Part shown: in pieces, positions 2,663 to 53,100 of the stretch | How the letters are laid out: each line of letters starts with the position of its first letter | How positions within the stretch are numbered: the first letter of the stretch is position 1 | Notes under the pieces: generated by a model | Told to the model about the DNA's origin: nothing | Databases searched by the model: none | Seen by the model: the letters and a program-made list of their open reading frames with translations, nothing else | Made by a program: the position numbers and the translations under genes | From: a virus | Taxonomy: Duplodnaviria > Caudoviricetes | Length of the DNA: 62,038 nucleotides | IMG/VR virus record: IMGVR_UViG_3300020207_000023 | Coordinates: 1 to 62,038 of that record | Direction: 5' to 3' (one strand)

Positions 2663-2670
2663 TTTTTGTC

Positions 2671-28275: not shown

Positions 28276-28803
28276 TCACACACTAAGGTTGTGGTGGACT
28301 AGCACTTCGTTTACAGGTGCGAAGTCAGGTAAGTCTGAGAACTTTTTGTAAAGATAATTGATGCCAGTGTGCATTATCACTTTCATCTGCTCGCTTCCTG
28401 CAGAATGGCGATGGGAATAGAGCACGAGTTCAAGCATATCTGCCATCTTAAGTCTGCTTTTTTCTTCTGGCGTTAGGACAAAAGTCAATCCAAGGTCGTC
28501 CATCACTTTCTTTTCAGCCTTTTCAAAGGCTTGCAGGACTTCGGGGAACGACCATTTCGCCGTTGCTGGGATATCACCCAACACCATTTCAGGCACATCG
28601 TGATACAACGCCGCCATGATTAACTGTTTGCTACTATCAGGCCATAACTGGTCAATCAATATACTGACTGCGTATGAATGTGCTCCCACTGTTTGCCTCT
28701 CTGCTTGCATTGGAACAGTATGGTAGCGCAGTAGGAACTGTGCATCCCACGCTGTCATCAATGTTTTAATGTTGGTTGTTGTCTTGCATTTTCGTCCCGC
28801 CAT
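28276..28803 (-). CDS. HD-domain deoxynucleotide phosphohydrolase (YfbR-like)
   Basis: RYH..TVGAHS..ALYHDVPE..GDIP..ADMLE. Confidence 0.85.
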   Translation of the reverse strand: MAGRKCKTTTNIKTLMTAWDAQFLLRYHTVPMQAERQTVGAHSYAVSILIDQLWPDSSKQLIMAALYHDVPEMVLGDIPATAKWSFPEVLQAFEKAEKKVMDDLGLTFVLTPEEKSRLKMADMLELVLYSHRHSAGSEQMKVIMHTGINYLYKKFSDLPDFAPVNEVLVHHNLSV

Positions 28804-30685
28804 CTTTTATTCCTCTTGCCCATGGTTTGTCGCTAAATGTCTTTTTAGCTTCACCCCAGCTCGGACCGAACTCAGCATCCACAACGCTGGGGATTTGCAT
28901 ATTGACACAGGTTTCCATTATTTCTTGTATTTTTGCACCAGTATCAGGGTCAGCAACGGATATGTCAAGTTCATCATGAACCTGAATCATAGGCGTAATA
29001 CCCTCTTCATACAGGGCAACCATCGCCGCTTTAGTTTGGTCAGCGGCACTGCCTTGTATCAATCTATTTAAGGCTTTGTATGTGAATGCTCTTTTGATTG
29101 CCGGACCATGCTCGGCGTAAGCATCTTGATAAGACATGGGTTTGTATGTCCCATACGCATTTGGCTCCCATTTATCAAAACGACACTTGCGTCCTAACAG
29201 GGTGCGTATCAATCCTTTGTTAGATGCACGGTGGATTACATAATCAGCTAACTGTTGCACGAATGGCACTTTTCCATGATACTCGGCAAATAATTCTTTA
29301 GCGTCATCAAACTCCAAACCCAACTGCTCAGCCAGTTTATTCTTACCCATCCCGTAGAATAGGCCGAGGTTAATGTCTTTTGCTTGCTTGCGCGGCACTC
29401 CCACAATATTTGCCGCCATCTGGTGGAAATCGGTATTAGCATCAATGTTATACTGGTCGGCAAACTCTTGTGCGCCTTGCAGTTTCAGTAGGCTGGCATA
29501 ATGAACAACGAGGCGTGGTTCTTGGCTACTGTAATCAAAAGCCCCCCACAATTCACCTTCATCGGGTAGAAACAAGCCACGAATCATCGGACCAATCTCA
29601 GCGTTCCGTGCTGGCACTTGTTGTAGATTAGGATTGCTGTAACTGAAGCGGCCTGTAACTGTGCCGCCATCATCACTTCTCAAACTGTGTGCTTCAGCAT
29701 GGATGCGACCGTTATGTTGGTGCTTCAGTATAGTGTCTATAAAGGTAGTTCGGGCTTTATTCAGCTCTCGAGCTCGAACCACAGCCTTTGGCAAGTCATG
29801 GGCATGGTTGGCTAGAAAGTTTTTAGTGAAGCTAGGCTGTCCTGATTTGGGCGTTTTAGGGTATTTCAGCCCATTAGCGTCGAAGGCTTTAGCAATACTC
29901 GCCGCCGCCCATATATCAATATCTTGCCCACCCGCATCAGCTAGAACCTTTTGTTCTTCGCGTTCCAGATACTCTTTTAACTGCTCTGCTTTTTCAAGGT
30001 CTACCCGCACACCCTTCTTACGCATGGCAAAGACGACCTTTAACACTTTAAGTTCTAAATCAAAAATATCAGCAATATCTTCTTTTAGTATAAGCCCTTT
30101 GAAATGTTGCCACAGTTTCAGCGTAAGTGCGGCATCCTGTTCTGCGTATTGCCCGACAAAGTGGGCTGGCAGTTTCCACATTTCACTCTTAGCATTTACA
30201 CCAAATGAGTTAGCGGCTTCATACAGGTCTTTTTCGCTTTTGCGTTCGTTCAGGTAATCCCTACCAAGTGCGTTCAATGCGTAACTAAACCTGTTTTCAT
30301 CAAGCAGGGCGGCTACGATCATTGTATCAATCACACGGCCTTTAACCTCAATCCCTTCTGCCCACAGCCAGCCGAGGTCATACATAGCATTGTGCATAAT
30401 GTAATCGCGCTCAACAGAAACAATGTTGGAGAGCCATCGCAGAGTTTGCTTTGCATCAAAGTTACCGCCGTTTTCATGACGGATAGGGAAATACCAAGCC
30501 TTGCCCTCTACCGCTACAGCAATCCCAATGACATAGCCATCTTTACGAGGCCAGCCACTACCCATCGTAGTTAGGTTAGGGTCGCGTGTTTCAAGGTCAA
30601 TCGCTATTTCTCTAGCGTCCGACAGGTCGGGGTAGCCATCAGGCATAACCCACTCAGTCGGAGGTGTGAACAAGGGGAACTGCAT
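28766..30685 (-). CDS. polA: Family A DNA polymerase with 3'-5' exonuclease
   Basis: IDLET, HNAMYD, TGRFS..PNLQQVP, DYSSQEPR, KDINLGLFYG, QVHDEL. Confidence 0.95.
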   Translation of the reverse strand: MQFPLFTPPTEWVMPDGYPDLSDAREIAIDLETRDPNLTTMGSGWPRKDGYVIGIAVAVEGKAWYFPIRHENGGNFDAKQTLRWLSNIVSVERDYIMHNAMYDLGWLWAEGIEVKGRVIDTMIVAALLDENRFSYALNALGRDYLNERKSEKDLYEAANSFGVNAKSEMWKLPAHFVGQYAEQDAALTLKLWQHFKGLILKEDIADIFDLELKVLKVVFAMRKKGVRVDLEKAEQLKEYLEREEQKVLADAGGQDIDIWAAASIAKAFDANGLKYPKTPKSGQPSFTKNFLANHAHDLPKAVVRARELNKARTTFIDTILKHQHNGRIHAEAHSLRSDDGGTVTGRFSYSNPNLQQVPARNAEIGPMIRGLFLPDEGELWGAFDYSSQEPRLVVHYASLLKLQGAQEFADQYNIDANTDFHQMAANIVGVPRKQAKDINLGLFYGMGKNKLAEQLGLEFDDAKELFAEYHGKVPFVQQLADYVIHRASNKGLIRTLLGRKCRFDKWEPNAYGTYKPMSYQDAYAEHGPAIKRAFTYKALNRLIQGSAADQTKAAMVALYEEGITPMIQVHDELDISVADPDTGAKIQEIMETCVNMQIPSVVDAEFGPSWGEAKKTFSDKPWARGIKDGGTKMQDNNQH

Positions 30686-30839
30686 CCGCTTTTACTTTCA
30701 TAGGTTGGTTACATGAACAATGAGGCCATTTGTTTTTGAGGTTGCGAAAGGTGAGGTGTTTAACCTCACCCTTGCACTCACACTCAGCAACTACAGGCTC
30801 ATCCAACTTCGAGTTCGAGTTGTCGGTCATCTTTGTCAC
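30654..30839 (-). CDS. Small Cys-containing protein
   Basis: CEC...CSC, overlaps neighbours. Confidence 0.45.
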   Translation of the reverse strand: MTKMTDNSNSKLDEPVVAECECKGEVKHLTFRNLKNKWPHCSCNQPMKVKADAVPLVHTSD

Positions 30840-31245
30840 CGAATCGCATCCTTAATTCAGCCTCAACAAGAAACAAATAACGCCGTAGGTCGCGTATATC
30901 ATCTAAAACGCCTTCCTCGCGTCTGTCTTCCTCTGCTGTTTGGAACACATCATAATTCCAGTCAGCCACTTGCTTTTCAAGCCTGTCCCATTTGCGAGCC
31001 AGCATCATAAAAGCACCAACGCCTCCGCGCTGTTTCCAACTGTTGCCATAGGATTGCTCAGATATATGCAACCCTTCAACATCCTCCATAGCCAGACCCA
31101 GCACCTTATTGATAATGGCACTGTAATCATCGGCATCTATTTCACCGTTCCTAACCAATTTAAGATACTCCTCTTCCTCTAACTCACGCATACGCCGTGT
31201 CATATAAGCCTCGTGACTTTCGTGTTTTACAAAGTTTCCATCCAT
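30799..31245 (-). CDS. Nucleotide-modification-associated (Nmad1/MazG-like) protein
   Basis: SYGNSW..ARKWDRL..LDDIRDLRRY. Confidence 0.65.
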   Translation of the reverse strand: MDGNFVKHESHEAYMTRRMRELEEEEYLKLVRNGEIDADDYSAIINKVLGLAMEDVEGLHISEQSYGNSWKQRGGVGAFMMLARKWDRLEKQVADWNYDVFQTAEEDRREEGVLDDIRDLRRYLFLVEAELRMRFGDKDDRQLELEVG

Positions 31246-32243
31246 TTGTCTTTTCTCCGTTCTAGCCATTCGTAACACGCCAAATGCCAATCATCTGGCT
31301 TTATGTCTTTAGAATGTTCCATGGCTTGGAAAATTTCTTTTGCTTTCCATGCCACCCACATTCTGTGCATAGGCTGTGCCACTTCGCTAAAAACAGAGTT
31401 AACATATGCTCTAGGTTTCTCGGGGTCTTCCATAAACCACTCAAGCTCTTCATCAAAGGTAAGTATGTCGTCAACCAATGGAGAAGGTTTAATCATGCGT
31501 GTAGCATATGAATCATAGTCAGGGGTCATTCCATCAAGCCCCTCCAACACTTCCACATAGGCGTGGAGGTTGTTGCTGAACTGTGTATAGATCCCCACCT
31601 GTGCGCCAATCCGTGCCGCAATGTATTCCTGCAGAATGGACATATGGACAGCGTTAGCTCCCAGCGCACCCCAGATCATATCATTACTGCGGTTGCATAC
31701 CGTCATGTCCAGCTTATTATCGCGAACGCTGAAATATATATGCGTATTACAGGGGTGATCTTTGCATTCATTATCCTTGCGTAAATCACCTTCAGGATCC
31801 CACATAGCTAAAACAGTTCGTCTATCGTTTTCATAGGTCATAAGTCTATGAACAGCTATGTCTAATTGGTCTTTATAGAAATAGTTACGCCATCTATAAC
31901 CATATGCACCTTGGAGGGTCTTACCATTATCACTATAAGTACCCATCCGTTTATTATAACGCTGGATCCACTCAAGGTCTTCACGACCCGCTAACATCCA
32001 GAGGCTTTCCATAAAATGGAATACAGGGTTAGCGTCGCGTTGCGGATAGAACAATACCCGCTCGCAGGGGTTATTGTAAGTAATCGCACAAGGCTCACGG
32101 AACTCAAGTGCTTTACCGTTTCGGGTGTCTACTTCAACACCGCTAGTTTCAAGTGCTTGCTTCACCAGCCATAACGCATCACTGACATTAACAGCGGTGA
32201 ATGTGTGCATACCCCTCATTGGGGCTTTGCCAAATAGTGCCAT
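31227..32243 (-). CDS. Thymidylate synthase homolog, probable dUMP hydroxymethyltransferase
   Basis: Catalytic PC (HPCN), RSND, dUMP-type Asn (GANAVH), NLHAY; clustered with 5-hmdU kinase. Confidence 0.8.
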   Translation of the reverse strand: MALFGKAPMRGMHTFTAVNVSDALWLVKQALETSGVEVDTRNGKALEFREPCAITYNNPCERVLFYPQRDANPVFHFMESLWMLAGREDLEWIQRYNKRMGTYSDNGKTLQGAYGYRWRNYFYKDQLDIAVHRLMTYENDRRTVLAMWDPEGDLRKDNECKDHPCNTHIYFSVRDNKLDMTVCNRSNDMIWGALGANAVHMSILQEYIAARIGAQVGIYTQFSNNLHAYVEVLEGLDGMTPDYDSYATRMIKPSPLVDDILTFDEELEWFMEDPEKPRAYVNSVFSEVAQPMHRMWVAWKAKEIFQAMEHSKDIKPDDWHLACYEWLERRKDKWMETL

Positions 32244-32344
32244 AATGAACCACCTTTCTATGGGGCTATAAAGCCGCTCGAGCGGCTGAGGTTAGTTTGC
32301 CCTACCCAACTACCAAAAGCAACCTTCTGGCGGCTGTATGGGGC

Positions 32345-33346
32345 TTAAATAAAGTCAAAATGCTTCTTGACACGCTTAGTGTATGTCCCTCCATTTAATG
32401 CTTCTTTAATTGCAGTTTCCGTTTCCTCTGTAGGCTCGGGTAACGTCTTGCGTCCCATGCGGTCAGGTAACAATCCATTACGAAGAGTGGTGTTGTCACA
32501 ACCGTTACAAGGACCGAAATCGCGTTGCCCATGATACAGTTTTGTTCTCGCCGCATGGAAAGCCTCCCCCTGCCAAATATCATCAATATGTGTGTCCATT
32601 ATATTGCCGCACTTATACCATCCTACCCAATCATTACAGCAGACTGCGACATTGCCATCCCATCGTATTGACATTTCGCGGAAAGGTTTAGCACAGCGTT
32701 TGCCATCTTGGTCATGGTTCAATGGAAAAGCATTTCCAGCATGGTTGCTAACTTGGGCATGAGTTCCACTTGTAGCCAATGTGAGATCCATGCCAACAAC
32801 GATATCATGCTCTGTAACTTTTCTTCTACGGTGGGGGTTTGCGGCGCGGTCGGCGGGGTATTCAAAAACGGGATGTGGACCATTGTAACGCTCCTTGATT
32901 TTATCTACGATTTTAATACGGTCGTAGTTATCAAGGAATAGAACATTTAGCCCTGCATCCATAAGTTTGTTGACCGTTTCCTCTGTGTCTTTCAACAACC
33001 CACCACCATTGCTAGTCATCATAAGCGGTGTTCTGGGTAACTCTTTACGGAACAGACCCACCATTTCAATAAAGAAAGGGTGCATAGTAGGCTCGCCGTG
33101 CATAGCAAACTCAATGCGTGGATTCCACCCTGCCCTTTTAATTTCCTGACAAATTCGGGTAGCCGTTTGAATATGCAGATTTTTGTAAGGGGCAGATGCT
33201 TTACCATGCAGATTACTCGGACCATCAGCCTCGTTTTCACGGATAGACTGTATGCCGCAAAATGAGCAAGCAAGGTTGCACCCTTCCACAAACTCTACCT
33301 GAATAGAGTTTGGTGGGTCTTGATAAAAGTTAGATTGCTCCACCAT
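32345..33346 (-). CDS. Radical SAM enzyme with SPASM/twitch domain
   Basis: CNLACSFC, HGEP, C..PF...DGNVAVCC...GNI...CNGC. Confidence 0.9.
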   Translation of the reverse strand: MVEQSNFYQDPPNSIQVEFVEGCNLACSFCGIQSIRENEADGPSNLHGKASAPYKNLHIQTATRICQEIKRAGWNPRIEFAMHGEPTMHPFFIEMVGLFRKELPRTPLMMTSNGGGLLKDTEETVNKLMDAGLNVLFLDNYDRIKIVDKIKERYNGPHPVFEYPADRAANPHRRRKVTEHDIVVGMDLTLATSGTHAQVSNHAGNAFPLNHDQDGKRCAKPFREMSIRWDGNVAVCCNDWVGWYKCGNIMDTHIDDIWQGEAFHAARTKLYHGQRDFGPCNGCDNTTLRNGLLPDRMGRKTLPEPTEETETAIKEALNGGTYTKRVKKHFDFI

Positions 33347-34115
33347 CTTTAGCGGCCTTTCTCCATTGAACACGGACATCCCACCGCGTTTTCATACCTT
33401 CCCAACCTGTTTTAGTTTCCTTTTGTAATGCTTTCACATACAACGGAAAGGCTTGTTCCAAAGCGCGGCTGGCGCGTTCTTGCAGTTCAGCATTGCGATA
33501 TGTGCTACAGCCTCCAGCCGCACCAGAAGCACCACGCTGATCCCATGTCCAATCTACAATAACCGCATTGCCGTGTCCCTTTTGGAATAGGCTGAGGGTT
33601 ACATAGTAGTCCTCCATTAACTCCATAGCATCATAGCGTATGCCTAATTGTTGGAGGATATGGGGGCGTATGGCATGGACAGCGTTTTGCCGCATCCCAT
33701 ACTTTACCCGATCTGGGTAATGTTTGTCATTCATCTGGCGTGGGCTGAGGCCAACATGGGTGAAGTTATTTAACAGCCACTCCATGCGCTCCCACAGTTC
33801 GTGCATCTCACCCTGCTCAGTTTTTCTTAGGTTAGGTGCGTCATCATGTGCGCGGCGACCAAATATAAGATCGTCATCCAAAATAATAATTTTATCATAC
33901 TCCTGCTCCACTGCGTGATCTACAATAAATTGCCGGACATTGTTTATGCCCTTGATATCACCACGGTTCAGGCAGTAACGACCATTGTTAATATGTGCTT
34001 GCACTTCTTCTTGTGGGCAAACCAGAACCGCACTTTCTCTTGCTTCCGGACCAATACTTTCCCAAGTAGTTTGCTTGTTGATCCTACCCCTTGTAGGAAT
34101 AAAAATAGGTATCAT
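33330..34115 (-). CDS. GT-A glycosyltransferase, TAGT/JGT/GREB1-like DNA-base type
   Basis: IFIPTRGR, ILDDDL, MEDY, GGCS motifs. Confidence 0.75.
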   Translation of the reverse strand: MIPIFIPTRGRINKQTTWESIGPEARESAVLVCPQEEVQAHINNGRYCLNRGDIKGINNVRQFIVDHAVEQEYDKIIILDDDLIFGRRAHDDAPNLRKTEQGEMHELWERMEWLLNNFTHVGLSPRQMNDKHYPDRVKYGMRQNAVHAIRPHILQQLGIRYDAMELMEDYYVTLSLFQKGHGNAVIVDWTWDQRGASGAAGGCSTYRNAELQERASRALEQAFPLYVKALQKETKTGWEGMKTRWDVRVQWRKAAKDGGAI

Positions 34116-34432
34116 AACTCATCCTCATCAAACCTTATTGAACCAGAGGCCATTGCTTCTTCTAACTCTTCATCGGTTAGGTTGTCAATGTCTGCTTCAG
34201 TATATTTAAAAACCTTTTGTGGCTTCGTCCTCGGCCGTAACCGTTTCTTTTTGTTTGGCTTTGGTTGCTCGGGTTTCGGTTTCGGCACGGTGGGCTTGGA
34301 GGTCTCTAATACTTCCAATGTCCGATAGATGTGCTTGCATTTCTGACATACTCGCTTCCTCCGGACTGATTTGTCTGCTGTAAGTCTGCTGTCTGCGACG
34401 GTTGATTTGCCACTGCATTTTGGACACAACAT
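34112..34432 (-). CDS. NrdR-like Zn-ribbon protein without ATP cone
   Basis: CPKC..STVADSR..VRRKRVCQKC...RTLE. Confidence 0.7.
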   Translation of the reverse strand: MLCPKCSGKSTVADSRLTADKSVRRKRVCQKCKHIYRTLEVLETSKPTVPKPKPEQPKPNKKKRLRPRTKPQKVFKYTEADIDNLTDEELEEAMASGSIRFDEDEL

Positions 34433-34434
34433 TT

Positions 34435-35340
34435 CTACACCACCCCACCATTAGGAGCCTCCAACCACATTCCAACATTAGCCTGATACTTACTGCGTGG
34501 CTTGCCTTGTCCAAGGCGCACACGCTCATACTTATCCCACTCGCACAGGCTATGCTCAATAGTTCGCATATCTACTGCATCAAGGGGAACATGAGATTGA
34601 ATGTAGTTTGGTGCTTGAGCCAGTAACTCTTGCATTTCGGTATTGGCTTGGGTCTGGTTCATAGACTTAGTCAACACCCTATCGTGGATACGGTTCAGTC
34701 CTCGCTTTGCTCCCGGACCTGCGTTTGCCCAACTAAAACGGTCTTGTGCCTTGTCCAATACAGGTGTGTAGTTGAGGTCGGTAACCACTTCGTATGACAT
34801 AAAGCCTCCCCCTCCCCATCCCCGATAGGAAGCCATCGCTTTGTGGGTCGCCTCCAACGATTGCGTTTCCTCAGCGACCCCCGATAAATGCACCCTGTCT
34901 TTCCAAATAGGTTTGAGGAAGTGGTCAACAACGACCTCCGACTTACGAGCTTTGAGACCTTGATTAGTGATTATATAAGCTCCAGTGAATGTCCGCAAAC
35001 CAGAGGACAACCTAGCCTCAATAAGTTCTTTGGTATGGTCGGGATTCCATCCTTTATCTTCGTCAACCCACCCATGCTCTTCGGCAAACTCGCTTGTGCC
35101 AATCATGCGGAACAAACAACAATTAAAAACGATTTCACTGTGCGGACGGTTAGCATTTGGGTTAGTCCAGTTTTGGCGCATCCAAACAGTAACACGGTCA
35201 TTTTCACGGAAGGGGTTGGTGAACTTGTAATCCTGCAAAATGTGGTCGTCAGTCCAAGGGGGATTGACCCCCTTGGCTCGCTTTTGGTAAATAGCGTGAC
35301 GCTCATTTATCCAGTAAAAGAACCTTTCTATGTTCTCCAT
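34435..35340 (-). CDS. 5-hmdU DNA kinase (aGPT-Pplase1 family)
   Basis: ERHAI..PPWTDDHILQDYKFTN..RENDR, FTGAY, GPGAKRGL, EHSLCEWDKY. Confidence 0.85.
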   Translation of the reverse strand: MENIERFFYWINERHAIYQKRAKGVNPPWTDDHILQDYKFTNPFRENDRVTVWMRQNWTNPNANRPHSEIVFNCCLFRMIGTSEFAEEHGWVDEDKGWNPDHTKELIEARLSSGLRTFTGAYIITNQGLKARKSEVVVDHFLKPIWKDRVHLSGVAEETQSLEATHKAMASYRGWGGGGFMSYEVVTDLNYTPVLDKAQDRFSWANAGPGAKRGLNRIHDRVLTKSMNQTQANTEMQELLAQAPNYIQSHVPLDAVDMRTIEHSLCEWDKYERVRLGQGKPRSKYQANVGMWLEAPNGGVV

Positions 35341-35344
35341 AGGC

Positions 35345-35950
35345 TTAGTTCCCTAGCTTAATGACGCCTTTAGCCAACGCCAATTTAATATCAACACTGT
35401 TGCCTCCAGGAGTCAACGCTTTCATAGCGGACAAGGCATCAGCAACGGTAGCAGACTTTGCAAGGGCTTCAAAATTATGCCAGCGATTGCTACCTTCACG
35501 GTATGGGTTAGAACCTGTAACAACAATCGTTGCCTGTGGGTCATACTTAGCCCGAGCATTGCGCTCTGGCTTGGGTGTATCTACAGCAACGGTTGGCGTA
35601 GGCATAGGAGCCGACGGAGTATTCACCTGCATTTTAGTCTCCTTTTCAACAGGTTTATATTTTTTCGCGCGAGCCGCTACAATCGTGTGAAACTCTTTGT
35701 AAACGCCCTGCGAATTGAAATAGCCAGTAGTCTCACGCTGGATATTACTGGCTTCCAAAACACTGAGTAACTCTTGCTCAGTGAATGTGTTTTGTAATTG
35801 TTCCACATTTGAAAACACAATGCTATACTCATTGAGTTCTTTACAATTACGAAGTTCTCGCAATGAGGGAAACACAAAATAGGAATATGGCTCGTTCCTG
35901 TTGGATTCATTGTGGTTTTCCAATACTGCATAAGTCTTGATTGCCGCCAT
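35345..35950 (-). CDS. Hypothetical two-domain protein
   Basis: 201 aa with Pro/Thr linker; TAGAAAGGAG leader. Confidence 0.65.
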   Translation of the reverse strand: MAAIKTYAVLENHNESNRNEPYSYFVFPSLRELRNCKELNEYSIVFSNVEQLQNTFTEQELLSVLEASNIQRETTGYFNSQGVYKEFHTIVAARAKKYKPVEKETKMQVNTPSAPMPTPTVAVDTPKPERNARAKYDPQATIVVTGSNPYREGSNRWHNFEALAKSATVADALSAMKALTPGGNSVDIKLALAKGVIKLGN

Positions 35951-36096: not shown

Positions 36097-37128
36097 TTAG
36101 GCGGCTTTGGCGTATTCAAGAGCCTTTGCCATAGCCTTCCGCTTGACTTGGGCATTATTGCCAAACCATGCGGAGTTAAGGGCGTGGTCACGAGTCTTGG
36201 CTCGCTTTTGGTGATCCATAACATAAGTCACACCGTTTAGCGCACCCCACCAAGTCCCCTTGGCTGAAGACATATCGTGTCCTGGAGAAGTTTCAATAGC
36301 TTCCAGTATAGACTGGGAAGTTTTGGTAAACTCCTCATGAAGCGGTGGTAAGTCGGCCTCGTTAGACTTAGCGCGTTCAATAAGCAGTTTGGGCTGGAAC
36401 AACTCAGCAATGAAGTTATCCACCTGTTCCTTAGTAGCTCGTTGCTTGGCAAGGAACTCGGACTGCTGTTGGAACTGTGTCATTTGCTCACCACTAATAC
36501 CAAGTGCTGTTTCAGCGGCTTGCATAATTTCCTCGTCAAACATTTGCAAATGCAACACGCGGAACTTACCAGTCATACCCTCTTGGCTGAGCGCAAGGGT
36601 AATCGTATTGTTACACACCACACGGATGGGGGTGAACATAACAGTCATAGCAGTGCCAACCTTGTGACTGTTAGCCATGAGCAAGTAACCCTCGATCTCA
36701 TCGCCACCCGCTAACTTGAAGCCTTTCTTGATTTTAGCCAAGCCCCAAATGCGCTCGCCATCACTTAGGCTACCCGCCGTGTCCATTTCCATATGCCCTG
36801 CTTCAGTAAACTTTTTGAAGAATGACATTGTTTCGTGGTTCTGGAATGGAACAAACCCTTCACCGCAGTGCGATAGCACACGGTTATCGGTATCACGCAC
36901 CACTACATAATGGTCGTTAGCCCGAAGCATTTCGGCTTCACCGCGTGGGTCATTGAGGTTCCAAGTGTTAGGCTTGTCAGCGTAATAGACAGGCCGCTTG
37001 CTAACTGTCCAGTCAAGGCCAGCCGCTTTAAGCATTTCCTCAGGAGTAAGGTTATGCTCAACTTTTTCACCAAGCCCATGCCAAGGAACTTGTCCTGCAT
37101 AAGCCATTGTTTCTACCATATGTGCCAT
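36097..37128 (-). CDS. DUF932/DUF945 family phage protein
   Basis: PWHGLG..AGLDW, TPIRVVCNNT, GTWWGALNGVT. Confidence 0.85.
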   Translation of the reverse strand: MAHMVETMAYAGQVPWHGLGEKVEHNLTPEEMLKAAGLDWTVSKRPVYYADKPNTWNLNDPRGEAEMLRANDHYVVVRDTDNRVLSHCGEGFVPFQNHETMSFFKKFTEAGHMEMDTAGSLSDGERIWGLAKIKKGFKLAGGDEIEGYLLMANSHKVGTAMTVMFTPIRVVCNNTITLALSQEGMTGKFRVLHLQMFDEEIMQAAETALGISGEQMTQFQQQSEFLAKQRATKEQVDNFIAELFQPKLLIERAKSNEADLPPLHEEFTKTSQSILEAIETSPGHDMSSAKGTWWGALNGVTYVMDHQKRAKTRDHALNSAWFGNNAQVKRKAMAKALEYAKAA

Positions 37129-37515: not shown

Positions 37516-39033
37516 TCACGCAGGAATTTGATAACCACGGCTGAACATGGGATGCACCAAATGTAAATGTTGTAGAGCGCGAGTAAGACCCACATAAAAC
37601 ACGCGAGCTTCATCAAAATGTTCGTTTTCAAACTTACGCCACATAGAATAGGAACGACGCATAGTGTCAGTGAGAACCATAACATTATCTGCTTGAGCTC
37701 CCTTTGCTGAGTGAATCGTTGAGATTCGGATGCGAGGCTCTTGTGTTAAGGATTCACCTTTGCGTAGACAGGCTTTAATGTAACGCTTATCTTTATCCGA
37801 TATTTTGCCCAACCCTTCATCCCAAGGGAGGCTGTGTAGTAATCCGTGGAAGTCCAGCAGATCTTGTAATCCATAACGCTGGTCTGGCTGTCCTTTACTA
37901 AAGGTTTTGTGTCCATACTCAACCTGTGTGCCTAACAACATCTGGCTATAAACAGTTCGCACCTGTTCAGCCGTTAGCATACCACCATCGCGTAGGTTTT
38001 CCCAAAGCCTAACTGATTCAAGAACTTTACCATCAATTGATTTACTGCCATTGTAGATATATAAATGTCCACGGCGGCGCACTTCTTCCTCAATCTGCTT
38101 TGCACCTCGTGTAGTGCGGCTGAGTAACAGCCAGTCACCTTCGGACATATTAACTTCTTCGGAGTGACGATGCCAATGGACAAACCCATCCTCATCCCGT
38201 GGGTTGAATTGTTTGGGTCTGCGATCAACGACGCGCTGAATTACTTTTTGGCTAAGTGCATGATGCAGGGCGGGTATCCTGTAACTTTGGTTCAGCACAG
38301 TGACACTGCCTTCAAGTCCTATGAAGTAGTCTACATCTGCACCCGCATAACGGAATATGGCTTGGTCGTCATCGCCAGCTACAAACATCTCTTTGCAGTT
38401 GGCTTGTAATAGATGTACCATTTTCCACTGCAATGGTGACAGGTCTTGCGCCTCATCAATGAACACCACCTCCAGTTTCGGTGCTAACTGACGGTAACAA
38501 AACTGCTCTAGCATATCTGTGTAGTCGAACAGTTGGTATCTATCCTTCCATGCCTTTAACCCCCTGTCTACGTAATCAACCCTAGCCCAGTCGGTTTTAA
38601 GCGGCACTGTAGAGGCATTGTAAACGCCACGCAGAGGCTGTTGCTGTATGCGAGCTATGTTAATCAGCTCAAGGAATTTATCGCCGTATCCAAAATCTTT
38701 ATACGGACCTTGGTCGGTGAGTCCTGAATTAAAGAAACCACCGATTTTTAACCAATCACCAATTTCAGTAAACTTATCCGATGTGAGAATTTGGTTATGG
38801 TTAATGCCCATCTGCATAAAGGCAAGGCTGTGAAGGGTGCGGAAGAAAGGTAAGTCGCGCCTGTGCAGTTTAAACTTTTCACAAGCACGGTCTATAGCTT
38901 CACTAGCGGCACGGCGAGTAAAGCCAAAGTAACCTATACGATCTGGTGCGACACCTTTGCTAAGATACTCTTCGACCTTGTTTAGGAGGTAGGTTGTTTT
39001 CCCTGTTCCTGGAGGTCCGAGTATAATATTCAT
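37516..39033 (-). CDS. UvrD/Rep-like SF1 helicase
   Basis: GPPGTGKT, IDEAQD, GDDDQAI, TIHSAKG, YVGLTRA. Confidence 0.92.
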   Translation of the reverse strand: MNIILGPPGTGKTTYLLNKVEEYLSKGVAPDRIGYFGFTRRAASEAIDRACEKFKLHRRDLPFFRTLHSLAFMQMGINHNQILTSDKFTEIGDWLKIGGFFNSGLTDQGPYKDFGYGDKFLELINIARIQQQPLRGVYNASTVPLKTDWARVDYVDRGLKAWKDRYQLFDYTDMLEQFCYRQLAPKLEVVFIDEAQDLSPLQWKMVHLLQANCKEMFVAGDDDQAIFRYAGADVDYFIGLEGSVTVLNQSYRIPALHHALSQKVIQRVVDRRPKQFNPRDEDGFVHWHRHSEEVNMSEGDWLLLSRTTRGAKQIEEEVRRRGHLYIYNGSKSIDGKVLESVRLWENLRDGGMLTAEQVRTVYSQMLLGTQVEYGHKTFSKGQPDQRYGLQDLLDFHGLLHSLPWDEGLGKISDKDKRYIKACLRKGESLTQEPRIRISTIHSAKGAQADNVMVLTDTMRRSYSMWRKFENEHFDEARVFYVGLTRALQHLHLVHPMFSRGYQIPA

Positions 39034-40547
39034 TAGATGATGTCTTCGTGTGTAGGCAACTCTGGCAGTGTCAATGGTTCGTCATTAGATGCAAAAAACT
39101 CTTGTGGTAATGACCACACATGAATCCCTTTGCCCTTTACACGCCAAAACATTTTTTCTGCTTCCATTCCCTGTAGCCGTAAGGTTATCTTGTTTGAAGT
39201 GTAGTGGTTGAAGTCGTTAACGGTCAGATGCTTTTTAATATCCTTGACTTGGAAGAATACTTTGCCCTCATCCCATACGGCTACGCCCTGCAATATGTCT
39301 TCACGGTCTGTACCTTTTGCTCTATCGGTGCAGAACTGCGACAACAAGTCTTCAAACTCGCCTTTAATTGTAGCATCAGGTGGCACTTCGACAATGGTTA
39401 AATTATCAAGCAGTAATTGTATCCGTGTTTGCCATGCTCTTTGGCTTACTGCGATAGGCAATTTATTGATTTGCGCTACACAATCTTTTTGGAATCGTGT
39501 CTGGCTAATCAACCCGTCTGTGCTTAATTCAACACGCTGACCATCTACATCTAGTATCCAAATAGGTGGATCGCCATCAATCTTTGTAAGGCTAGACATC
39601 TGGTTTTGCACACCAGCCGGACCAACGCCAAACTTGCGAGTAACGCATATATCCTTATTACAAAAAGGTTTGATAGGTTGATCGTCACATTTGTAATAAT
39701 AATCCTTGCGTTGTAACTGTTTGATAACCGCGCCAACCTCAGTATGACTAAGCGGCGGGTGCAAATACTCGACATTGTAACGCTGTATCAAGGCTTCCCA
39801 ATTATCAGGGTCAAACATTCGGGCATACACACCCAAGTTAAAGAGAGCATTGTTTCGTGAGCCTTCGCCAAAGCCCTGTTGACAAAGCTCATTCAAACAT
39901 GGTGGACCATCTTTTAACTTAGGTTCTGGCTCGGATATACGGTAAGCCGTAAAGTCTTCAGGCTTTATCAAGTAGCGTGTGGCTTTAGTCACAAACTCTT
40001 CAGGTGTCATAAGTTCACCCTTAAAGTCGTATACCGACCGCGTACTGAGGTCGCCCTTAAAGTAAGGCATATTCAAACCATTACCTGTATCACCACGGTC
40101 TACAAGAATGGTTGATTGTTTAGGAAATATCTCACCTTCGGCGTGGCCTAATGAAGCCGCCAGCTCGGTAAGTTTGGATTGCACAAACTCAGCTTTGAGT
40201 GCATCCGTGAAGAAGAAATAAATATGTGCGCCGCCAGATTTACTACGGCCTACCCATCCAACGATCTTAGCATCTTTGAGTTTTTTGACGAGTGCCTTAT
40301 GGTCTACATCGTATGTATCAATATCAATCGCACCCCACTTACAAAGGTTATCATCCCGGATAGGGATAATGCCTAGCCCTTGCTTACCATCTAGGTGCTG
40401 TTGCCAAAGTTCTTCAGTTGGTGGCTGTTTTATGATTTTGTAAACGCCAAGCCGCTTGCCATCACTGCGCTGTTCGTCAGGATTAAACACGCCATGCGCT
40501 CGTTTGTTACCATCAAATAGCTTTAGAAATTTCTCTGCTAAAGACAT
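39033..40547 (-). CDS. AEP-like primase with PriCT-type domain
   Basis: IDID, SKSGGAH, PPCL, EGSRNNALF. Confidence 0.75.
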   Translation of the reverse strand: MSLAEKFLKLFDGNKRAHGVFNPDEQRSDGKRLGVYKIIKQPPTEELWQQHLDGKQGLGIIPIRDDNLCKWGAIDIDTYDVDHKALVKKLKDAKIVGWVGRSKSGGAHIYFFFTDALKAEFVQSKLTELAASLGHAEGEIFPKQSTILVDRGDTGNGLNMPYFKGDLSTRSVYDFKGELMTPEEFVTKATRYLIKPEDFTAYRISEPEPKLKDGPPCLNELCQQGFGEGSRNNALFNLGVYARMFDPDNWEALIQRYNVEYLHPPLSHTEVGAVIKQLQRKDYYYKCDDQPIKPFCNKDICVTRKFGVGPAGVQNQMSSLTKIDGDPPIWILDVDGQRVELSTDGLISQTRFQKDCVAQINKLPIAVSQRAWQTRIQLLLDNLTIVEVPPDATIKGEFEDLLSQFCTDRAKGTDREDILQGVAVWDEGKVFFQVKDIKKHLTVNDFNHYTSNKITLRLQGMEAEKMFWRVKGKGIHVWSLPQEFFASNDEPLTLPELPTHEDII

Positions 40548-40664: not shown

Positions 40665-41474
40665 TTAGAACGGCACATCGTCATCATCTTGCTGTGACTG
40701 TTGTGCAGGGGCTTGAGTTTGCTCTGGGGCTTGCTCTTTAACCTCTACCTCACCAGACTTAACAGACTTAGCGAACGCGACTGCCATTTCAAACACGGCT
40801 TTATCACCAGCATTAGAAAGGTCAATCGGACCGACTTTGTTAATGTCCCAGCCAAACCAATTACCTTTATCATTGCTTTCAGCAACGGTAGACAGTTGGT
40901 ATTTGTGTGACATCATTGGCAAAGTGTACGGACCGTTTTTGCCTTCTGCTGTAAGTGACTGCATTTGTGTAACCCACTTGCGAGCTTTCTTCAGCTGTGT
41001 GCTAGACATAGTAATCAAGCAACGCTGTGGACCATCTTCATCAAGCAGGATTACAAAGAACTGAGCGGTGTTGGTCAGGATATTGCCGTTAGGCAGGATA
41101 TCTTCACCGCGCTCATTTTTAGTGGTAGTGTTAACGATAGCATCGTCAGGCTGGTAAGAACCATAATATCCACCGCCCTTTTCACGCGGAGCCCACTCAA
41201 CATAACGGCGATTGTAATAGCACGGCACAACCGCGATACCCTTTTCACCATCGTATGCTTTATTGGCTACAGTATTAAAGATCATGCCAGCTTCAGCACC
41301 CTCAACATACGCACCATCACGCTTATTAACCTGTGGGCTAAGTTGTGCAAGGATACGCAGAAAGGGGATAGCCATATCCTCTGAACTGGTTTCCTCAAAA
41401 CCCAGACCACCAAGGTCTTCGAACTGTGCTACTGCAAGAGCAGTGGCTTCCTTTTTTGCTACTTCAGTTGCCAT
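40665..41474 (-). CDS. Putative single-stranded DNA-binding protein
   Basis: IPFLRILAQLSPQV motif; acidic DDDDVPF tail. Confidence 0.65.
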   Translation of the reverse strand: MATEVAKKEATALAVAQFEDLGGLGFEETSSEDMAIPFLRILAQLSPQVNKRDGAYVEGAEAGMIFNTVANKAYDGEKGIAVVPCYYNRRYVEWAPREKGGGYYGSYQPDDAIVNTTTKNERGEDILPNGNILTNTAQFFVILLDEDGPQRCLITMSSTQLKKARKWVTQMQSLTAEGKNGPYTLPMMSHKYQLSTVAESNDKGNWFGWDINKVGPIDLSNAGDKAVFEMAVAFAKSVKSGEVEVKEQAPEQTQAPAQQSQQDDDDVPF

Positions 41475-41476
41475 AT

Positions 41477-42022
41477 TTACCTCCTAGTAATCTTGGCTCT
41501 TTGCCCCACGAATATACCCAACAGGTCATACGGCAAATTTTCACCTTTTTCTACCTGTTCCTTTACAAAAGACTTGAGTGTCATGGGTTCAACCCAAGTT
41601 TTTGTTTGAGTTGCCATACCGCGCTGTTCCAGCTCGGCAAGCAAATCTTTTGCGAGGTTATCCTCACCACGACCAAAAGCCGCAGTAACATGATTCTTAA
41701 TTAGCGAACCATGCCCCGCTTCAGTAAGCCAACTAAAGGCTTCCTCAGCACGGTCTTTAGCAATGCTGGCACTGTAATAAGGTGCGACCTTAATTTCACT
41801 GCCATCATCCATTTTTAGCTCAGACATACCATGCTCATCCATTGCCGCTGGGAGTAAATCCTCAGCAATTTTGCGATGGTCGCGCTTGGCGTCTTTGAGC
41901 TCTTGCTCAAGATCAGCGATCCGTTGTTCCAACATAACTTGTTGTTTACATAGGTTACTTATAGTGCTGATACCTGATTGATTAATGCTGGTTAGGTCTC
42001 CAGCCACACTTTCAAAGTCCAT
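41477..42022 (-). CDS. Conserved replication-module protein
   Basis: AFSWL..GHGSLIKN, VEPMTLKSFVKE. Confidence 0.7.
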   Translation of the reverse strand: MDFESVAGDLTSINQSGISTISNLCKQQVMLEQRIADLEQELKDAKRDHRKIAEDLLPAAMDEHGMSELKMDDGSEIKVAPYYSASIAKDRAEEAFSWLTEAGHGSLIKNHVTAAFGRGEDNLAKDLLAELEQRGMATQTKTWVEPMTLKSFVKEQVEKGENLPYDLLGIFVGQRAKITRR

Positions 42023-42345
42023 TAGGCAGACTCCTTCCTATGGTATAGATCTACTACCAACGGATAGTAACGTTCCTCTAGCCTGTCCCACTTTAATGCT
42101 TTGAACTTACCACTGTTTCTACGCGCCGCTTCAGCACAGGCAATGCCTATACATAAAGGGTCGCCTGAGAGCAGTAGGTAGTCGTCATCATTAAAGTGAC
42201 GCAAGCCACGATGAATGCGCCTAACTGTTGGCTGAGTGCTAAAAGAAACCTGTTCCTTGGCCGGAACAAGTATTTGCAGGTCACCGAAGGCAACTGCATC
42301 TGTGATATCTCTACCACGCACTTCTTGTGTAATGTAGACTGTCAC
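42022..42345 (-). CDS. Hypothetical protein
   Basis: DYLLLSGDP motif; first gene of leftward operon. Confidence 0.65.
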   Translation of the reverse strand: MTVYITQEVRGRDITDAVAFGDLQILVPAKEQVSFSTQPTVRRIHRGLRHFNDDDYLLLSGDPLCIGIACAEAARRNSGKFKALKWDRLEERYYPLVVDLYHRKESA

Positions 42346-42607: not shown

Positions 42608-44044
42608 ATGCGTTATAAATTTAAGTTTCAACCCTACCAGCATCAGCTGGAAGCACTGAAAAAGTCTTGGAACAAAACCGAGTTTGCCTATTTCATGGAT
42701 ATGGGAACAGGCAAATCTAAAGTGCTTATTGATAATATGTGCGTCCTGTATGACCGTGGCGAAATTACCGCCGCGCTTATTGTCGCACCCAAAGGTGTGT
42801 ATAGAAACTGGGAGCAAGGCGAACTGCCCACGCACATTCCTGACCATGTTATGTATGACACGGTGCTGTGGAATCCTAGCCAAACAAAAACACAGCTTGA
42901 AAAGCAAAAGACATTGTTTTTCCCAGATGATAACCTCAAGATTTTTGTTATGAATGTTGAGGCGTTCAGCACTAAAAAGGGCTGTGAAATAGCCGAGCGG
43001 TTTTTGCAAGCGCACAGCGCACTCATGGCTGTAGATGAAAGCACTACCATAAAAAGCAAGGATGCCAAGCGCACCAAGAACATTGTGAAAATTGGTAAGT
43101 CGGCCAGATACAGGCGTATCCTAACAGGCTCGCCAGTAACCAAAAGCCCTATGGATTTATACACACAATGTGAGTTCCTTGATTCGTGGTTGCTAGGCCA
43201 TAGTAGCTACTTTAGCTTCCAATACGAGTACGCTGTCGTGCAACGCCGTAGTATGGGAGCGCACAGTTTCAATCAGGTTGTGGGCTACCGTAACCTTGAT
43301 AAACTCAACGGCATACTGGAAAACTTCAGCTTCCGTGTTAAGAAAGAAGACTGTTTAGATTTGCCTGATAAAGTGTATATCAAGCGAGCAGTCGAGCTTA
43401 CAGATGAGCAGAAATCAGTTTACAGTAGCCTCAAAACATTTGCCCTAGCCATGCTGGAAGAAGGCTCGGTAACTACCGATACAATACTGACACAGCTATT
43501 ACGGCTACAACAGGTTTGTTCAGGCCATGTAAAATTAGATGATGGCGAAATGAAAACCTTTAACTCAGCCAAACTGCCCGAACTTATGTCTGTCCTTGAA
43601 GAAGTTGATGGCAAGGTTATCATATGGGCTAACTTCACACACGACATTAAGAACATCGAGCAAGCTATTGCAAAAGCATACGGCGAGCAAAGTGTAGCTA
43701 CATACTATGGGGAAACCGAGAGTGATGAGCGACAGGCCATTGTCAACCGTTTCCAAGACCCCAACGACCCACTTATGTATTTCGTAGGGCAACCACGGAC
43801 AGGTGGTTATGGCTTAACACTGACAGAAGCTAAGACTGTGGTGTATTACAGCAATAACTTTGACCTTGAAATACGGTTACAAAGTGAGGATAGAGCGCAC
43901 CGTATCGGGCAAACTAGCAAAGTAACATACATTGATATTGTAGCGGAAGACACAGTCGACGAGCGTATCTTGAAAGCCCTGCGGAACAAAATCAATATAG
44001 CAAGTCAAGTCCTTGCAGAAGACTTCAGGGACTGGATTGTTTAA
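42608..44044 (+). CDS. SNF2-family helicase
   Basis: MDMGTGKS, VDES, LTGSP, GYGLTL, QSEDRAHRIGQ. Confidence 0.92.
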   Translation: MRYKFKFQPYQHQLEALKKSWNKTEFAYFMDMGTGKSKVLIDNMCVLYDRGEITAALIVAPKGVYRNWEQGELPTHIPDHVMYDTVLWNPSQTKTQLEKQKTLFFPDDNLKIFVMNVEAFSTKKGCEIAERFLQAHSALMAVDESTTIKSKDAKRTKNIVKIGKSARYRRILTGSPVTKSPMDLYTQCEFLDSWLLGHSSYFSFQYEYAVVQRRSMGAHSFNQVVGYRNLDKLNGILENFSFRVKKEDCLDLPDKVYIKRAVELTDEQKSVYSSLKTFALAMLEEGSVTTDTILTQLLRLQQVCSGHVKLDDGEMKTFNSAKLPELMSVLEEVDGKVIIWANFTHDIKNIEQAIAKAYGEQSVATYYGETESDERQAIVNRFQDPNDPLMYFVGQPRTGGYGLTLTEAKTVVYYSNNFDLEIRLQSEDRAHRIGQTSKVTYIDIVAEDTVDERILKALRNKINIASQVLAEDFRDWIV

Positions 44045-44517: not shown

Positions 44518-44966
44518 TAGGTTTCCCCAATAGCTCGCATACGATTTACCAACCGTTGTGCTCTATTAGTGACTTGCTGATACCAACGGGAATCAACCAT
44601 CTCATCAGCCGCTTTATTCCAATCACGAGCATCTACTCCTGCTTTCATACCTTTGAACTGACTAAGGCGGGGGTAGCCCATATTGAACATCATATTTGCA
44701 ATGATCAATCGCGCTTCTTCCGGAAGCTCTTCATAATCTTCGTAGAGTTTATCGCATTCAGATAATACAATATCGATATCTTTATTAAATGCTTGTACCA
44801 CTCTATCTTCGCTGACAGGCGTCCCGACTGGTGCTCCATGCTCCGGATCATCATCCCTAACAAGGTGGCCGATACCAAAAGTAGGATAACCCAAATGATC
44901 CAAGTATATCTCATACTTGCACCCTTCGTCTTCTTCTATTTCTTTTCTGAGTTGCTCTAGGTTCAT
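44517..44966 (-). CDS. Endolysin, T4-like GH24 lysozyme
   Basis: DEG....YLDHLGYPTFGIGHL, NMMFNMG, DSRWYQQV..RA. Confidence 0.9.
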   Translation of the reverse strand: MNLEQLRKEIEEDEGCKYEIYLDHLGYPTFGIGHLVRDDDPEHGAPVGTPVSEDRVVQAFNKDIDIVLSECDKLYEDYEELPEEARLIIANMMFNMGYPRLSQFKGMKAGVDARDWNKAADEMVDSRWYQQVTNRAQRLVNRMRAIGET

Positions 44967-52869: not shown

Positions 52870-53100
52870 CTATGGCGCGATTTTTACCGTGCCAGAATCA
52901 TTCCAAAGAGCACCTGTTTCCAAACCAGTGGCTGAAGTAGGTAACTCTGTCAACACTATAGTAGCCCCACGCAACCCTCCTGGATTGCGTTCTTGCTGAA
53001 TAAATAGCTCTAATGTACGAATTAAATCCTGCATATATTGTGGGCTATACTCAGCTGGAGCTTCTGGGAGTCTTGGTGGTGCTATTTGGTTACTAGACAT
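52870..53100 (-). CDS. Small tail-associated protein
   Basis: LPTSATGLETGALWNDSG. Confidence 0.6.
   Translation of the reverse strand: MSSNQIAPPRLPEAPAEYSPQYMQDLIRTLELFIQQERNPGGLRGATIVLTELPTSATGLETGALWNDSGTVKIAP

Follow-up and report, generated by a model that had tools for sequence, protein, structure and literature searches.

Genes and enzymes of the cassette

IMG/VR virus record IMGVR_UViG_3300020207_000023, whose whole length of 62,038 bp is the window of this analysis, carries a compact cassette of genes that we connect with hypermodification of thymidine in phage DNA. All of them lie on the minus strand. Read 5' to 3', they encode a 201-aa protein, a protein of Pfam family PF18723, a zinc ribbon, a glycosyltransferase of the TAGT family, a radical S-adenosylmethionine enzyme (rSAM), a homolog of thymidylate synthase (TS), a product of a small open reading frame (ORF), a family A DNA polymerase (PolA) and an HD-domain nucleotidase (Table 1). 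From the 201-aa gene through rSAM, stop and start codons abut or overlap; the zinc-ribbon stop overlaps the TAGT start (ATGA), the TAGT stop overlaps the rSAM start, and a gap of 100 bp separates rSAM from the TS homolog. A sequence-only reading had picked out part of this block as an unusual cluster, composed of a dUMP-type synthase, a kinase of 5-hydroxymethyl-2'-deoxyuridine (5-hmdU), a base-J-type glycosyltransferase and a radical SAM enzyme, with no amino-acid transferase and no pyridoxal phosphate (PLP) enzyme. Its ORFs lie where it had put them, all on the minus strand. The finding is real, although one key label, that of the kinase, has to be corrected, and it was partly anticipated in print in 2022 with respect to the TS, aGPT-Pplase1 and transferase genes.

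The TS homolog matches PF00303 with 70.7 bits (cut-off 24.3) and retains the catalytic Cys, its P-C-N aligning with P-C-H of TS. At the specificity position of these enzymes Asn selects for uracil and Asp for cytosine. Here, the Asn of G-A-N aligns with the pyrimidine-specifying Asn of TS, and with the Asp of the CMP hydroxymethylase MilA, so that the dUMP-type Asn of the earlier reading is indeed in place. The closest cultured relatives, at 43-46% identity, are TS homologs of PaMx11-, Ab18- and M6-like phages and of phage PhiJL001. Enzymes of the PaMx11, Ab18 and M6 type are described as dUMP hydroxymethyltransferases, found together with genes of 5-hmdU hypermodification (Lee 2018, in part; sources so marked are cited from part of their text). 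We regard the TS homolog as most likely dUMP-specific and a dUMP hydroxymethylase. To this extent, it holds that the cluster is of the thymidine-hypermodification type and has a dUMP-type TS homolog at its base.

A DNA-type glycosyltransferase, too, is present, assigned here to TAGT and only putatively of base-J type. It matches PF20691 with 52.2 bits (cut-off 27.5), with residues 2-202 aligned to positions 1-205 of the 205-position profile. In 15 TAGT sequences ranging down to 20% identity, the DxD residues of the metal/nucleotide-sugar motif, D81 and D82 (in L-D-D-D-L), E168-D169, G201-G202, R11, R61 and R207 are invariant. No relative was found among PDB sequences at E<=1. Both the TAGT and the aGPT-Pplase families were reportedly defined by Iyer et al. 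in 2013 (NAR). The TAGT member of phage T6 extends glucosylated 5-hydroxymethylcytosine (glucosyl-hmC; PMC13390438, in part).

The presence of a radical SAM enzyme was likewise borne out, by matches to PF04055 (5.6e-9) and to the SPASM family PF13186 (6.4e-13; 49.2 bits, cut-off 21.5). The CX3CX2C cysteines C34, C38 and C41 are invariant in 49 homologs, which are 30-52% identical to the query. SPASM enzymes possess a seven-Cys motif and two auxiliary clusters; in the 49 homologs only five C-terminal Cys are conserved (C229, C247, C248, C291 and C294). Compared with the PDB, the profile of these homologs matches BtrN at 1.4e-28 along the core as well as the auxiliary-cluster domain, while the match that comes next reaches 5e-8 and, like all later ones, comprises the core only. 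In the profile alignment, C229, C248, C291 and C294 are paired with Cys of the C-terminal domain of BtrN. BtrN is also the top Foldseek match of the AlphaFold2 model (pLDDT 93.3), with E 8.8e-16 and a TM-score of 0.76-0.82 normalised to BtrN, followed at a distance by CteB (8e-8), anSME (about 1e-7) and the 'Twitch radical SAM dehydrogenase SpeY' (5.5e-6). Judged by profile and model, the enzyme is a BtrN-like, Twitch-domain protein of the sugar/cyclitol dehydrogenase type. With BtrN and SpeY it shares the CX3CX2C core and one Twitch domain for an auxiliary cluster, the Cys ligands of which align. The reaction of BtrN is the oxidation of a secondary alcohol on the ring of 2-deoxy-scyllo-inosamine, the compound named as ligand in its PDB title. 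Unlike BtrN, which serves aminoglycoside biosynthesis, rSAM has an insertion around residues 150-228 and a C-terminal extension and stands in the context of phage DNA. The likely start of rSAM is the ATG at 33346, because the family consensus begins at M12 of the longest ORF, residues 1-14 are modelled with pLDDT below 50 and a GGAG lies upstream.

The rSAM family is large, with 1,236 homologs at E<=1e-3 in a protein set clustered at 90%, and 145 representatives at E<=1e-30. In one homolog (P0145, 623 aa), the SPASM/Twitch domain is separated from the radical SAM core by an intein that includes an HNH endonuclease domain (Intein_splicing 1.3e-12, HNH_3 9.8e-5). PADLOC returns weak 'pVip' (viperin) matches to rSAM, 2.5e-5 and 3.4e-4, which cover the core only; because of such matches, automated pipelines may mislabel this family as antiviral viperin.

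The 301-aa PF18723 protein is the one on which we depart from the sequence-only reading. There is no doubt about its family, as the match reaches 175.7 bits (cut-off 25), runs from residue 4 to 277 on the same positions of the 281-position profile and is reproduced by a six-frame search. PF18723, formerly clade 1 of aGPT-Pplase (hereafter Pplase1), is entered in Pfam as "5-hmdU DNA kinase, helical domain" (HMUDK_hel). This label is an annotation trap, since it reads as kinase although the protein looks like a stand-alone, transferase-like one. A regular-expression search in all six frames gave no Walker A motif within 34435-35340 and three matches elsewhere in the window, the single credible one in a UvrD helicase (37516-39033). 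In the complete record, neither the kinase family PF18748 (HMUDK_HMUD1) nor the transferase family PF18724 (ADDT) has a match at E<=1. Both are detectable by this profile search, since in the controls PF18748 finds gp54 of phage M6 (1.1e-19), PF18724 matches in M6 (2.3e-48) and PF18723 matches in the window. In M6, the tested kinase is gp54, of PF18748; the PF18723 protein is a separate one, gp55, with which ours is 36% identical, and gp51 is the PF18724 transferase. Lysates with gp54 and gp51 alone were sufficient for formation of N-alpha-glycinylthymidine, gp55 being dispensable in vitro (Lee 2021, in part).

Further searches agree with this picture. When M6 proteins were compared with the window genome by tblastn, the best E values were 2.0 for gp54, 0.11 for gp51, 0.21 for the PLP enzyme gp52 and 0.38 for the radical SAM isomerase gp53, and the value for gp56 (Nmad5) was no better than 0.11. 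The 50 window ORFs scanned with Pfam include neither a further kinase nor an aminotransferase, PLP enzyme or dioxygenase. These 50 were taken from 131 six-frame ORFs of at least 90 aa, most of which overlap others or are antisense; the minus-strand ORFs outside the scan include the largest structural ones (15278-17674, 44963-48106, 48107-50545 and 53100-55202). PF12851 and PF18757 are absent from the window genome. The 301-aa protein as 5-hmdU DNA kinase is rejected, as it has no P-loop and matches only the helical-domain profile. Family confirmation by hidden Markov models was thus obtained for the TS homolog, the glycosyltransferase and the radical SAM enzyme and failed for the kinase, whereas the reported lack of aGPT-Pplase2 (PF18724) and of PLP enzymes was confirmed.

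What the 301-aa protein resembles instead is the amino-acid:DNA transferase. An alignment of 19 homologs (lowest identity 31%) shows C266 and E267 to be invariant and E262 to be conserved in at least 90%, which gives an E-x3-C motif. The same spacing occurs in PaMx11 gp46, where Glu243 and Thr244 are metal ligands and Cys247 is the nucleophile attacking C6 (PMC11472151, in part). The comparison of the protein with M6 gp51 by hhalign is weak overall (E 0.021, probability 2%) and aligns the E-x3-C stretch with E-T-V-L-C of gp51. An AlphaFold2 model of the 301-aa protein is all helical (pLDDT 91.4). Among 48,161 chains, its best VIA-align match is PaMx11 gp46, the glycinyltransferase acting on 5-phosphomethyl-dU (5-PmdU), at Z 10.3, rmsd 4.3 and 224 aligned residues, a Z below about 13 being possibly unspecific for helical proteins. 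Ranks 2-23 are taken by two queuine-salvage DUF2419 entries together with DNA glycosylases and enzymes of the endonuclease III type. By sequence profile nothing in the PDB matched at E<=10, and the best Foldseek E was 0.6. Because the Z lies in the unspecific range, we rate the fold evidence for a protein like the helix-hairpin-helix glycosylases as suggestive only. The ADDT profile also touches the C-terminal part of the PF18723 protein of PhiJL001, weakly and below cut-off (7.8e-4).

Motif and model suggest that the 301-aa protein is a helical, DNA-glycosylase-like paralog of the transferases, which keeps the E-x3-C dyad and shares this motif without being a member of PF18724. Equating aGPT-Pplase1 with the kinase was thus mistaken: judged by its families, the cluster holds a relative of the enzyme thought to be missing and is without the enzyme thought to be present. 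Longer or fused forms of the PF18723 protein were not found, which is weak evidence, and a complex prediction of TAGT with this protein scored 0.00, which weighs neither way on binding.

Table 1. Predicted genes of the cassette, with positions in the window
Feature	Position	Strand	Length (aa)	Family matches and remarks
HD-domain YfbR-like 5'-deoxynucleotidase	28276..28803	-	175	PF12917 1.2e-8, PF13023, PF01966; phrog_6047 1.8e-37; 36% identical to M6 gp59
Family A DNA polymerase (PolA) with 3'-5' exonuclease	28766..30685	-	639	PF00476 2.9e-59, PF01612 9.6e-10; 39% identical to M6 polymerase
Small ORF between TS homolog and PolA	30799..31245	-	about 148	From in-frame ATG 31245; longest ORF has TTG start 31290; no family above threshold (Pfam, PHROG)
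TS-superfamily enzyme	31227..32243	-	338	PF00303 1.4e-19; phrog_5131 1.8e-105
BtrN-like Twitch-domain radical SAM enzyme (rSAM)	32345..33346	-	333	From ATG 33346; longest ORF from 33379, 344 aa
TAGT-family GT-A glycosyltransferase	33330..34115	-	261	PF20691 9.5e-14; phrog_842 4.6e-44
NrdR-type zinc ribbon, Lys/Pro/Glu-rich tail	34112..34432	-	106	PF22811 5.1e-11; TIGR00244, N-terminal part only, 1.4e-9
Stand-alone HMUDK_hel / aGPT-Pplase clade 1 protein	34435..35340	-	301	PF18723 1.7e-51
Conserved 201-aa protein, first gene of block	35345..35950	-	201	Kept in 18 of 23 close relatives, 45-94% identity

Linkage of the glycosyltransferase and the radical SAM enzyme

With rSAM as query, we collected 23 close loci (L002-L024), in which rSAM is 80-98% identical. 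TS homolog, rSAM and TAGT keep the same order in all of them, with an overlap between TAGT and the start of rSAM and with the TS homolog located downstream; the genes thus form one cluster, as had been claimed, and are not a chance grouping. The PF18723 gene is found in 21 of the 23, a contig end truncating the locus in both exceptions, and the zinc ribbon in 19, at 42-98% identity.

A wider set of 84 loci holds 44 distinct rSAM sequences. A separate TAGT ORF lies within 300 bp of 37 of them and a fused one accompanies one more, which makes 38 of 44 adjoining or fused; in three, TAGT is 484-1,973 bp away, and in three none was detected (L042, L043 and L080). The fusion, in which TAGT and rSAM share one 579-aa frame (locus L087, protein P0129), is the sole one verified on DNA. 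A second fusion record, P0130 (588 aa), has TAGT, Radical_SAM and SPASM domains. Three further candidates (L027, L028 and L029) were rejected as fusions and represent abutting genes, since tblastn places their halves in different frames. TS occurs in 39 of the 44 rSAM loci and PF18723 in 35. Gene order varies, rSAM preceding TAGT in L030 for example. The kinase, transferase, PLP enzyme, radical SAM isomerase and Nmad5 of M6 have no blastp match at E<=1e-4 in the 84 loci.

In two loci, L027 (2661-5262; 76% GC) and L028 (7-2472), the TAGT-rSAM pair abuts a gene of a Tet_JBP dioxygenase, which stands in place of the TS homolog; L029 repeats the TAGT-rSAM arrangement of L028. The pair is therefore not confined to marine phages of the TS type. 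Because it is linked to two unrelated generators, TS homolog and Tet_JBP, we argue that it would act on a 5-hydroxymethylpyrimidine in DNA. Another arrangement is seen on a 97.7-kb viral contig (L073:6236-9014), where a class I SAM methyltransferase (305 aa) is encoded directly upstream of the pair and a distant TS homolog (401 aa, 29% identical) 3.3 kb downstream, with no PF18723 gene in the fetched stretch. This locus may represent another variant with further tailoring.

Proposed pathway, alternatives and known systems

To our knowledge, thymidine hypermodification routes known so far (M6, ViI, PaMx11, phiW-14, SP10, SH-Ab 15599) proceed via kinase-made 5-phosphomethyl-dU and an amino-acid or amine transferase. 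A cassette without the kinase and without this transferase predicts a sugar route on 5-hmdU with radical SAM tailoring. We suggest direct, kinase-independent glycosylation of 5-hmdU in DNA by TAGT, followed by oxidation or other tailoring of the sugar by the Twitch-domain rSAM, with Pplase1 responsible for a separate, general step. We consider the chances of this scheme about even.

In the first step, as suggested by its family and relatives, the TS homolog would make 5-hydroxymethyl-dUMP from dUMP. The HD nucleotidase presumably depletes the competing thymidine nucleotide pool, and the phage PolA presumably incorporates 5-hmdUTP, 5-hmdU entering DNA before or during replication. In the second step, TAGT would glycosylate the 5-hydroxymethyl group in DNA, with a nucleotide-sugar of the host as donor. 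The resulting product would be a base-J-like O-glycoside, formed without any phosphorylated intermediate. In the third step, for which homology to BtrN and SpeY is our guide, the translationally coupled rSAM would take a hydrogen atom from the sugar on the DNA. One secondary alcohol would then, most likely, be turned into a ketone by two-electron oxidation via the auxiliary cluster; epimerisation or another rearrangement seems less likely. The Pplase1 paralog probably flips the base and performs a general step on 5-substituted uracil in DNA that is not specific for sugar, because it accompanies the TS homolog whatever the tailoring enzymes are. Since no 5-hmdU DNA kinase is encoded, there is no basis for a 5-PmdU intermediate or a phospho-sugar. 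The earlier proposal of a sugar or phospho-sugar on 5-hmdU, altered by radical chemistry, is thus best kept in its sugar part and abandoned in its phospho-sugar part. The sugar-then-radical reading is strengthened by the tight linkage of TAGT and rSAM, by their natural fusion and by the BtrN-like character of rSAM.

Several points weigh against this scheme. The linkage loci were fetched by similarity to rSAM or to the TAGT-rSAM fusion and so are a biased sample, in which many loci are cut by contig ends, and no cultured isolate is among the phages found with rSAM. The phage encodes no aminotransferase or other enzyme using keto-sugars, which would make a ketone an unusual end product. Compared with BtrN, rSAM has about 90 additional residues and an identity of only 17-18%, and its extra invariant Cys (C247 or C248) could point to another reaction, for example epimerisation. 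For the TS homolog, activity as hydroxymethylase and not as methylase is inferred only from the identity of its relatives. Finally, an E-x3-C motif retained without a kinase fits the sugar model poorly, and for the protein that bears it the structural match at Z 10.3 falls in the unspecific range and the hhalign comparison with a single ADDT sequence is weak.

In one alternative, the sugar is an activating or leaving group and no end product, glycosylation (be it with radical oxidation or without) standing in for phosphorylation of the 5-hydroxymethyl group: the Cys of Pplase1 would attack C6 and expel the sugar, and a nucleophile or hydride would add, giving a non-sugar base or, at some sites, thymine. 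The E-x3-C spacing of Glu243 and Cys247 in PaMx11 gp46 is kept in Pplase1, the best structural match of which is this very enzyme (within the range unspecific for helical proteins), no kinase is encoded for the usual phosphate leaving group, and the route from 5-hmdU to thymidine in such phages is stated as unknown (Lee 2018, in part). Yet an O-glycoside is a poor leaving group, and M6 gp55 was dispensable for group transfer in vitro (Lee 2021, in part). Moreover, the TAGT-rSAM pair occurs without a PF18723 gene in the fetched stretch of L027 and L073, while PF18723 and TS occur in the kinase-based M6 cassette, and often without the glycosyltransferase (Wittmers 2022, in part). Because each occurs without the other, the Pplase1/TS and TAGT-rSAM modules are separable. 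We hold this alternative to be improbable. Its stronger form, in which glycosylation and radical oxidation of the sugar would be a new way of activating the 5-hydroxymethyl group in place of the P-loop kinase, with Cys-C6 catalysis by Pplase1 expelling the oxidised sugar and installing a group or hydride, is given a smaller chance still. If it were true, Pplase1 proteins would supply the activity, long looked for, by which 5-hmdU becomes thymine or a new base in these phages.

A somewhat better, though still low, chance goes to the possibility that rSAM acts elsewhere, either on the base, oxidising the 5-hmdU alcohol to 5-formyl-dU in the manner of anSME, or on the nucleotide-sugar donor before transfer. 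After BtrN, anSME and other SPASM/Twitch dehydrogenases are indeed the next structural neighbours, and the TAGT-rSAM fusion is equally compatible with donor preparation. Oxidation of the hydroxymethyl group would, however, destroy the acceptor of the co-translated transferase, and the closest solved relatives, BtrN and SpeY, act on ring secondary alcohols of sugar-like molecules. It is quite unlikely that the pathway concerns cytosine, with the TS homolog as dCMP hydroxymethylase and TAGT glycosylating 5-hmC in the manner of T-even phages. Among PDB sequences, the TS homolog matches the CMP hydroxymethylase MilA best (8.7e-19) and the characterised TAGT members act on hmC-derived bases (from part of the literature), but the specificity position is Asn as in TS and not Asp as in MilA, the nearest phage relatives are dUMP-type enzymes of thymidine-hypermodifying phages, the 50 Pfam-scanned ORFs contain no dCTPase or dCMP deaminase family, and the PF18723 partner is, in the parts of the literature cited here, reported in thymidine pathways only. 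Least probable of all, in our view, is that TAGT and rSAM are auxiliary metabolic genes unrelated to DNA, serving a host surface glycan or a small molecule. About 65% of metagenomic contigs with such transferases are without a nearby base-modification gene (bioRxiv 2023.12.21.572611, in part), and BtrN itself makes an antibiotic precursor; still, the pair is tied to TS homologs and Tet_JBP in unrelated phages, including the locus of 76% GC, and here it sits inside a replication/nucleotide block with overlapping start and stop codons.

Returning to kinase-independent glycosylation with radical tailoring, comparison with known systems shows which parts would be new. The closest neighbourhood is that of M6 and PaMx11 (Lee 2018, 2021; Wen 2024), where the TS homolog (43-46% identity), HD nucleotidase, PolA and PF18723 protein are held in common. 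M6 has, in addition, the P-loop kinase gp54, the glycine:DNA transferase gp51, an unrelated 480-aa radical SAM isomerase, a PLP decarboxylase and Nmad5, all of them absent from the window phage, in which TAGT and the BtrN-like rSAM stand instead. The nearest cultured analogue is PhiJL001 (AY576273), a phage of Alphaproteobacteria, whose gp19-gp25 block shares PF18723 (gp19), TAGT (gp22), TS homolog (gp24) and HD nucleotidase (gp25), and in whose genome PF18748 was not found. It differs by Nmad5 (gp23), by the lack of an rSAM partner and by a TAGT only 28% identical to ours. Our literature search found no report on the DNA chemistry of PhiJL001.

HTVC023P-type pelagiphages, the lineage of the window phage, were described with 'DNA hypermodification partner AMGs' (auxiliary metabolic genes; Wittmers et al. 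2022, PMC9599517, in part). There, TS, aGPT-Pplase1, 5'-deoxynucleotidase and this type of glycosyltransferase are reported together, so the cluster is less unusual than the sequence-only reading had it; the rSAM partner we found nowhere in print. The main text of that paper contains neither 'radical SAM' nor 'SPASM' nor 'iron-sulfur', treats PPlase1 as in M6 and leaves the missing kinase unremarked. Phage systems of TET/5mYOX with GT-A enzymes (Burke 2021; Pyle 2023/2024; PNAS 2026; all in part) likewise use a post-replicative GT-A enzyme on 5-hydroxymethylpyrimidine. Their tailoring enzymes, as far as these parts go, are epimerases, second transferases, APH kinases and methyltransferases, with no radical SAM partner. 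Transferases are described as common near ThyS homologs; in metaviromes, GT-A enzymes are about equally associated with ThyS and 5mYOX, and 'pVip' annotations are mentioned near such transferases (Pyle et al., bioRxiv 2023.12.21.572611, in part). Because rSAM gives a weak PADLOC pVip match (2.5e-5, core only), some of these annotations may represent the family described here. Phage T-dioxygenases have been linked to glycosyltransferases as well (PNAS 2026, in part). In base J of kinetoplastids, made by the JBP hydroxylase and the glucosyltransferase JGT, the same kind of chemistry leads to what we predict as first product, an O-glycosylated 5-hydroxymethyluracil in DNA; there, however, 5-hmU is produced by a dioxygenase and no radical SAM step follows, while here it would arise before replication via the TS homolog.

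In the literature, we found no DNA glycosyltransferase described as having a radical SAM partner, terms being checked in sources including PMC8989533, PMC5889632, PMC9599517, bioRxiv 2023.12.21.572611, PMC13229309, PMC13390438, PMC13458397, PMC11472151 and PMC11946847; the supplements of Wittmers 2022 and Pyle 2023 may list rSAM. Going by gene content, the product would be a DNA base so far undescribed. If our assumptions are true, the cassette would give rise to a new base of natural DNA and would encode a radical SAM enzyme working on a DNA-linked glycan, of which we found no example in print. Such a base could affect restriction evasion, bias in sequencing and amplification of viromes, and the search for DNA-modifying enzyme tools.

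The phage and the surroundings of the cassette

CheckV rates the record as 100% complete. Nearly all genes are on the minus strand, and GC content is even across the genome (0.43-0.52). For the large terminase, identity amounts to 63% with Pelagibacter phage HTVC027P and with phage 023Pt_psg01 and to 58% with HTVC023P, and the left arm encodes a podophage fibre, an SU10-type adaptor and capsid proteins. On the basis of terminase identity and these structural proteins, the virus is an HTVC023P-type marine podophage. This abundant and widespread lineage infects SAR11 and, given also the size of the rSAM family, sugar-plus-radical chemistry may occur commonly in ocean waters.

Between 30500 and 37400, sites resembling promoters or terminators show no excess (11 against 10.7 in shuffled sequences, and 8 against 6.6, respectively). 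Because these counts match the shuffles, we make no claim on operon boundaries beyond the overlapping stops and starts.

The 201-aa protein at the head of the block is without a family in Pfam, PHROG, NCBIfam and PADLOC, and its best ESM Atlas score, 0.79, is at the level of chance. Its identification as Nmad5 was ruled out by a negative hhalign comparison with M6 Nmad5 (E 0.33). The C-terminal half (35354-35611) weakly resembles gp18 of PhiJL001, with 32% identity over 87 aa (E 0.015), and each of the two genes lies immediately upstream of the PF18723 gene in its own phage.

Directly upstream of the cassette, 36097-37128 (minus strand) encodes a 343-aa DUF932 / TIGR03299 'phage/plasmid-like protein' (7.4e-72). 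It is the best-conserved gene of the neighbourhood, being 85-100% identical in 19 of the 23 close-relative loci, namely the 19 whose stretch reaches it. Then comes a replication module (37516-40547, minus strand) with the UvrD-type helicase and an archaeo-eukaryotic primase with PriCT-1. Three consecutive genes at 40665-42345 (minus strand) match gp34-, gp33- and gp32-like families of Pseudanabaena phage Pam3 (1.6e-72, 3.1e-34 and 1.1e-23); Pam3 also possesses a related TS homolog, at 44% identity. An SNF2-family helicase at 42608-44044, which we also count in the replication module, is one of the few plus-strand genes. Far from the cassette, two adjacent 343-aa genes at 1631-3702 (minus strand) encode a protein with a C-terminal C1q domain and a glycine-rich-domain protein, probably fibres, and the highest GC of the genome (0.522) occurs in the 2,001-4,000 interval.

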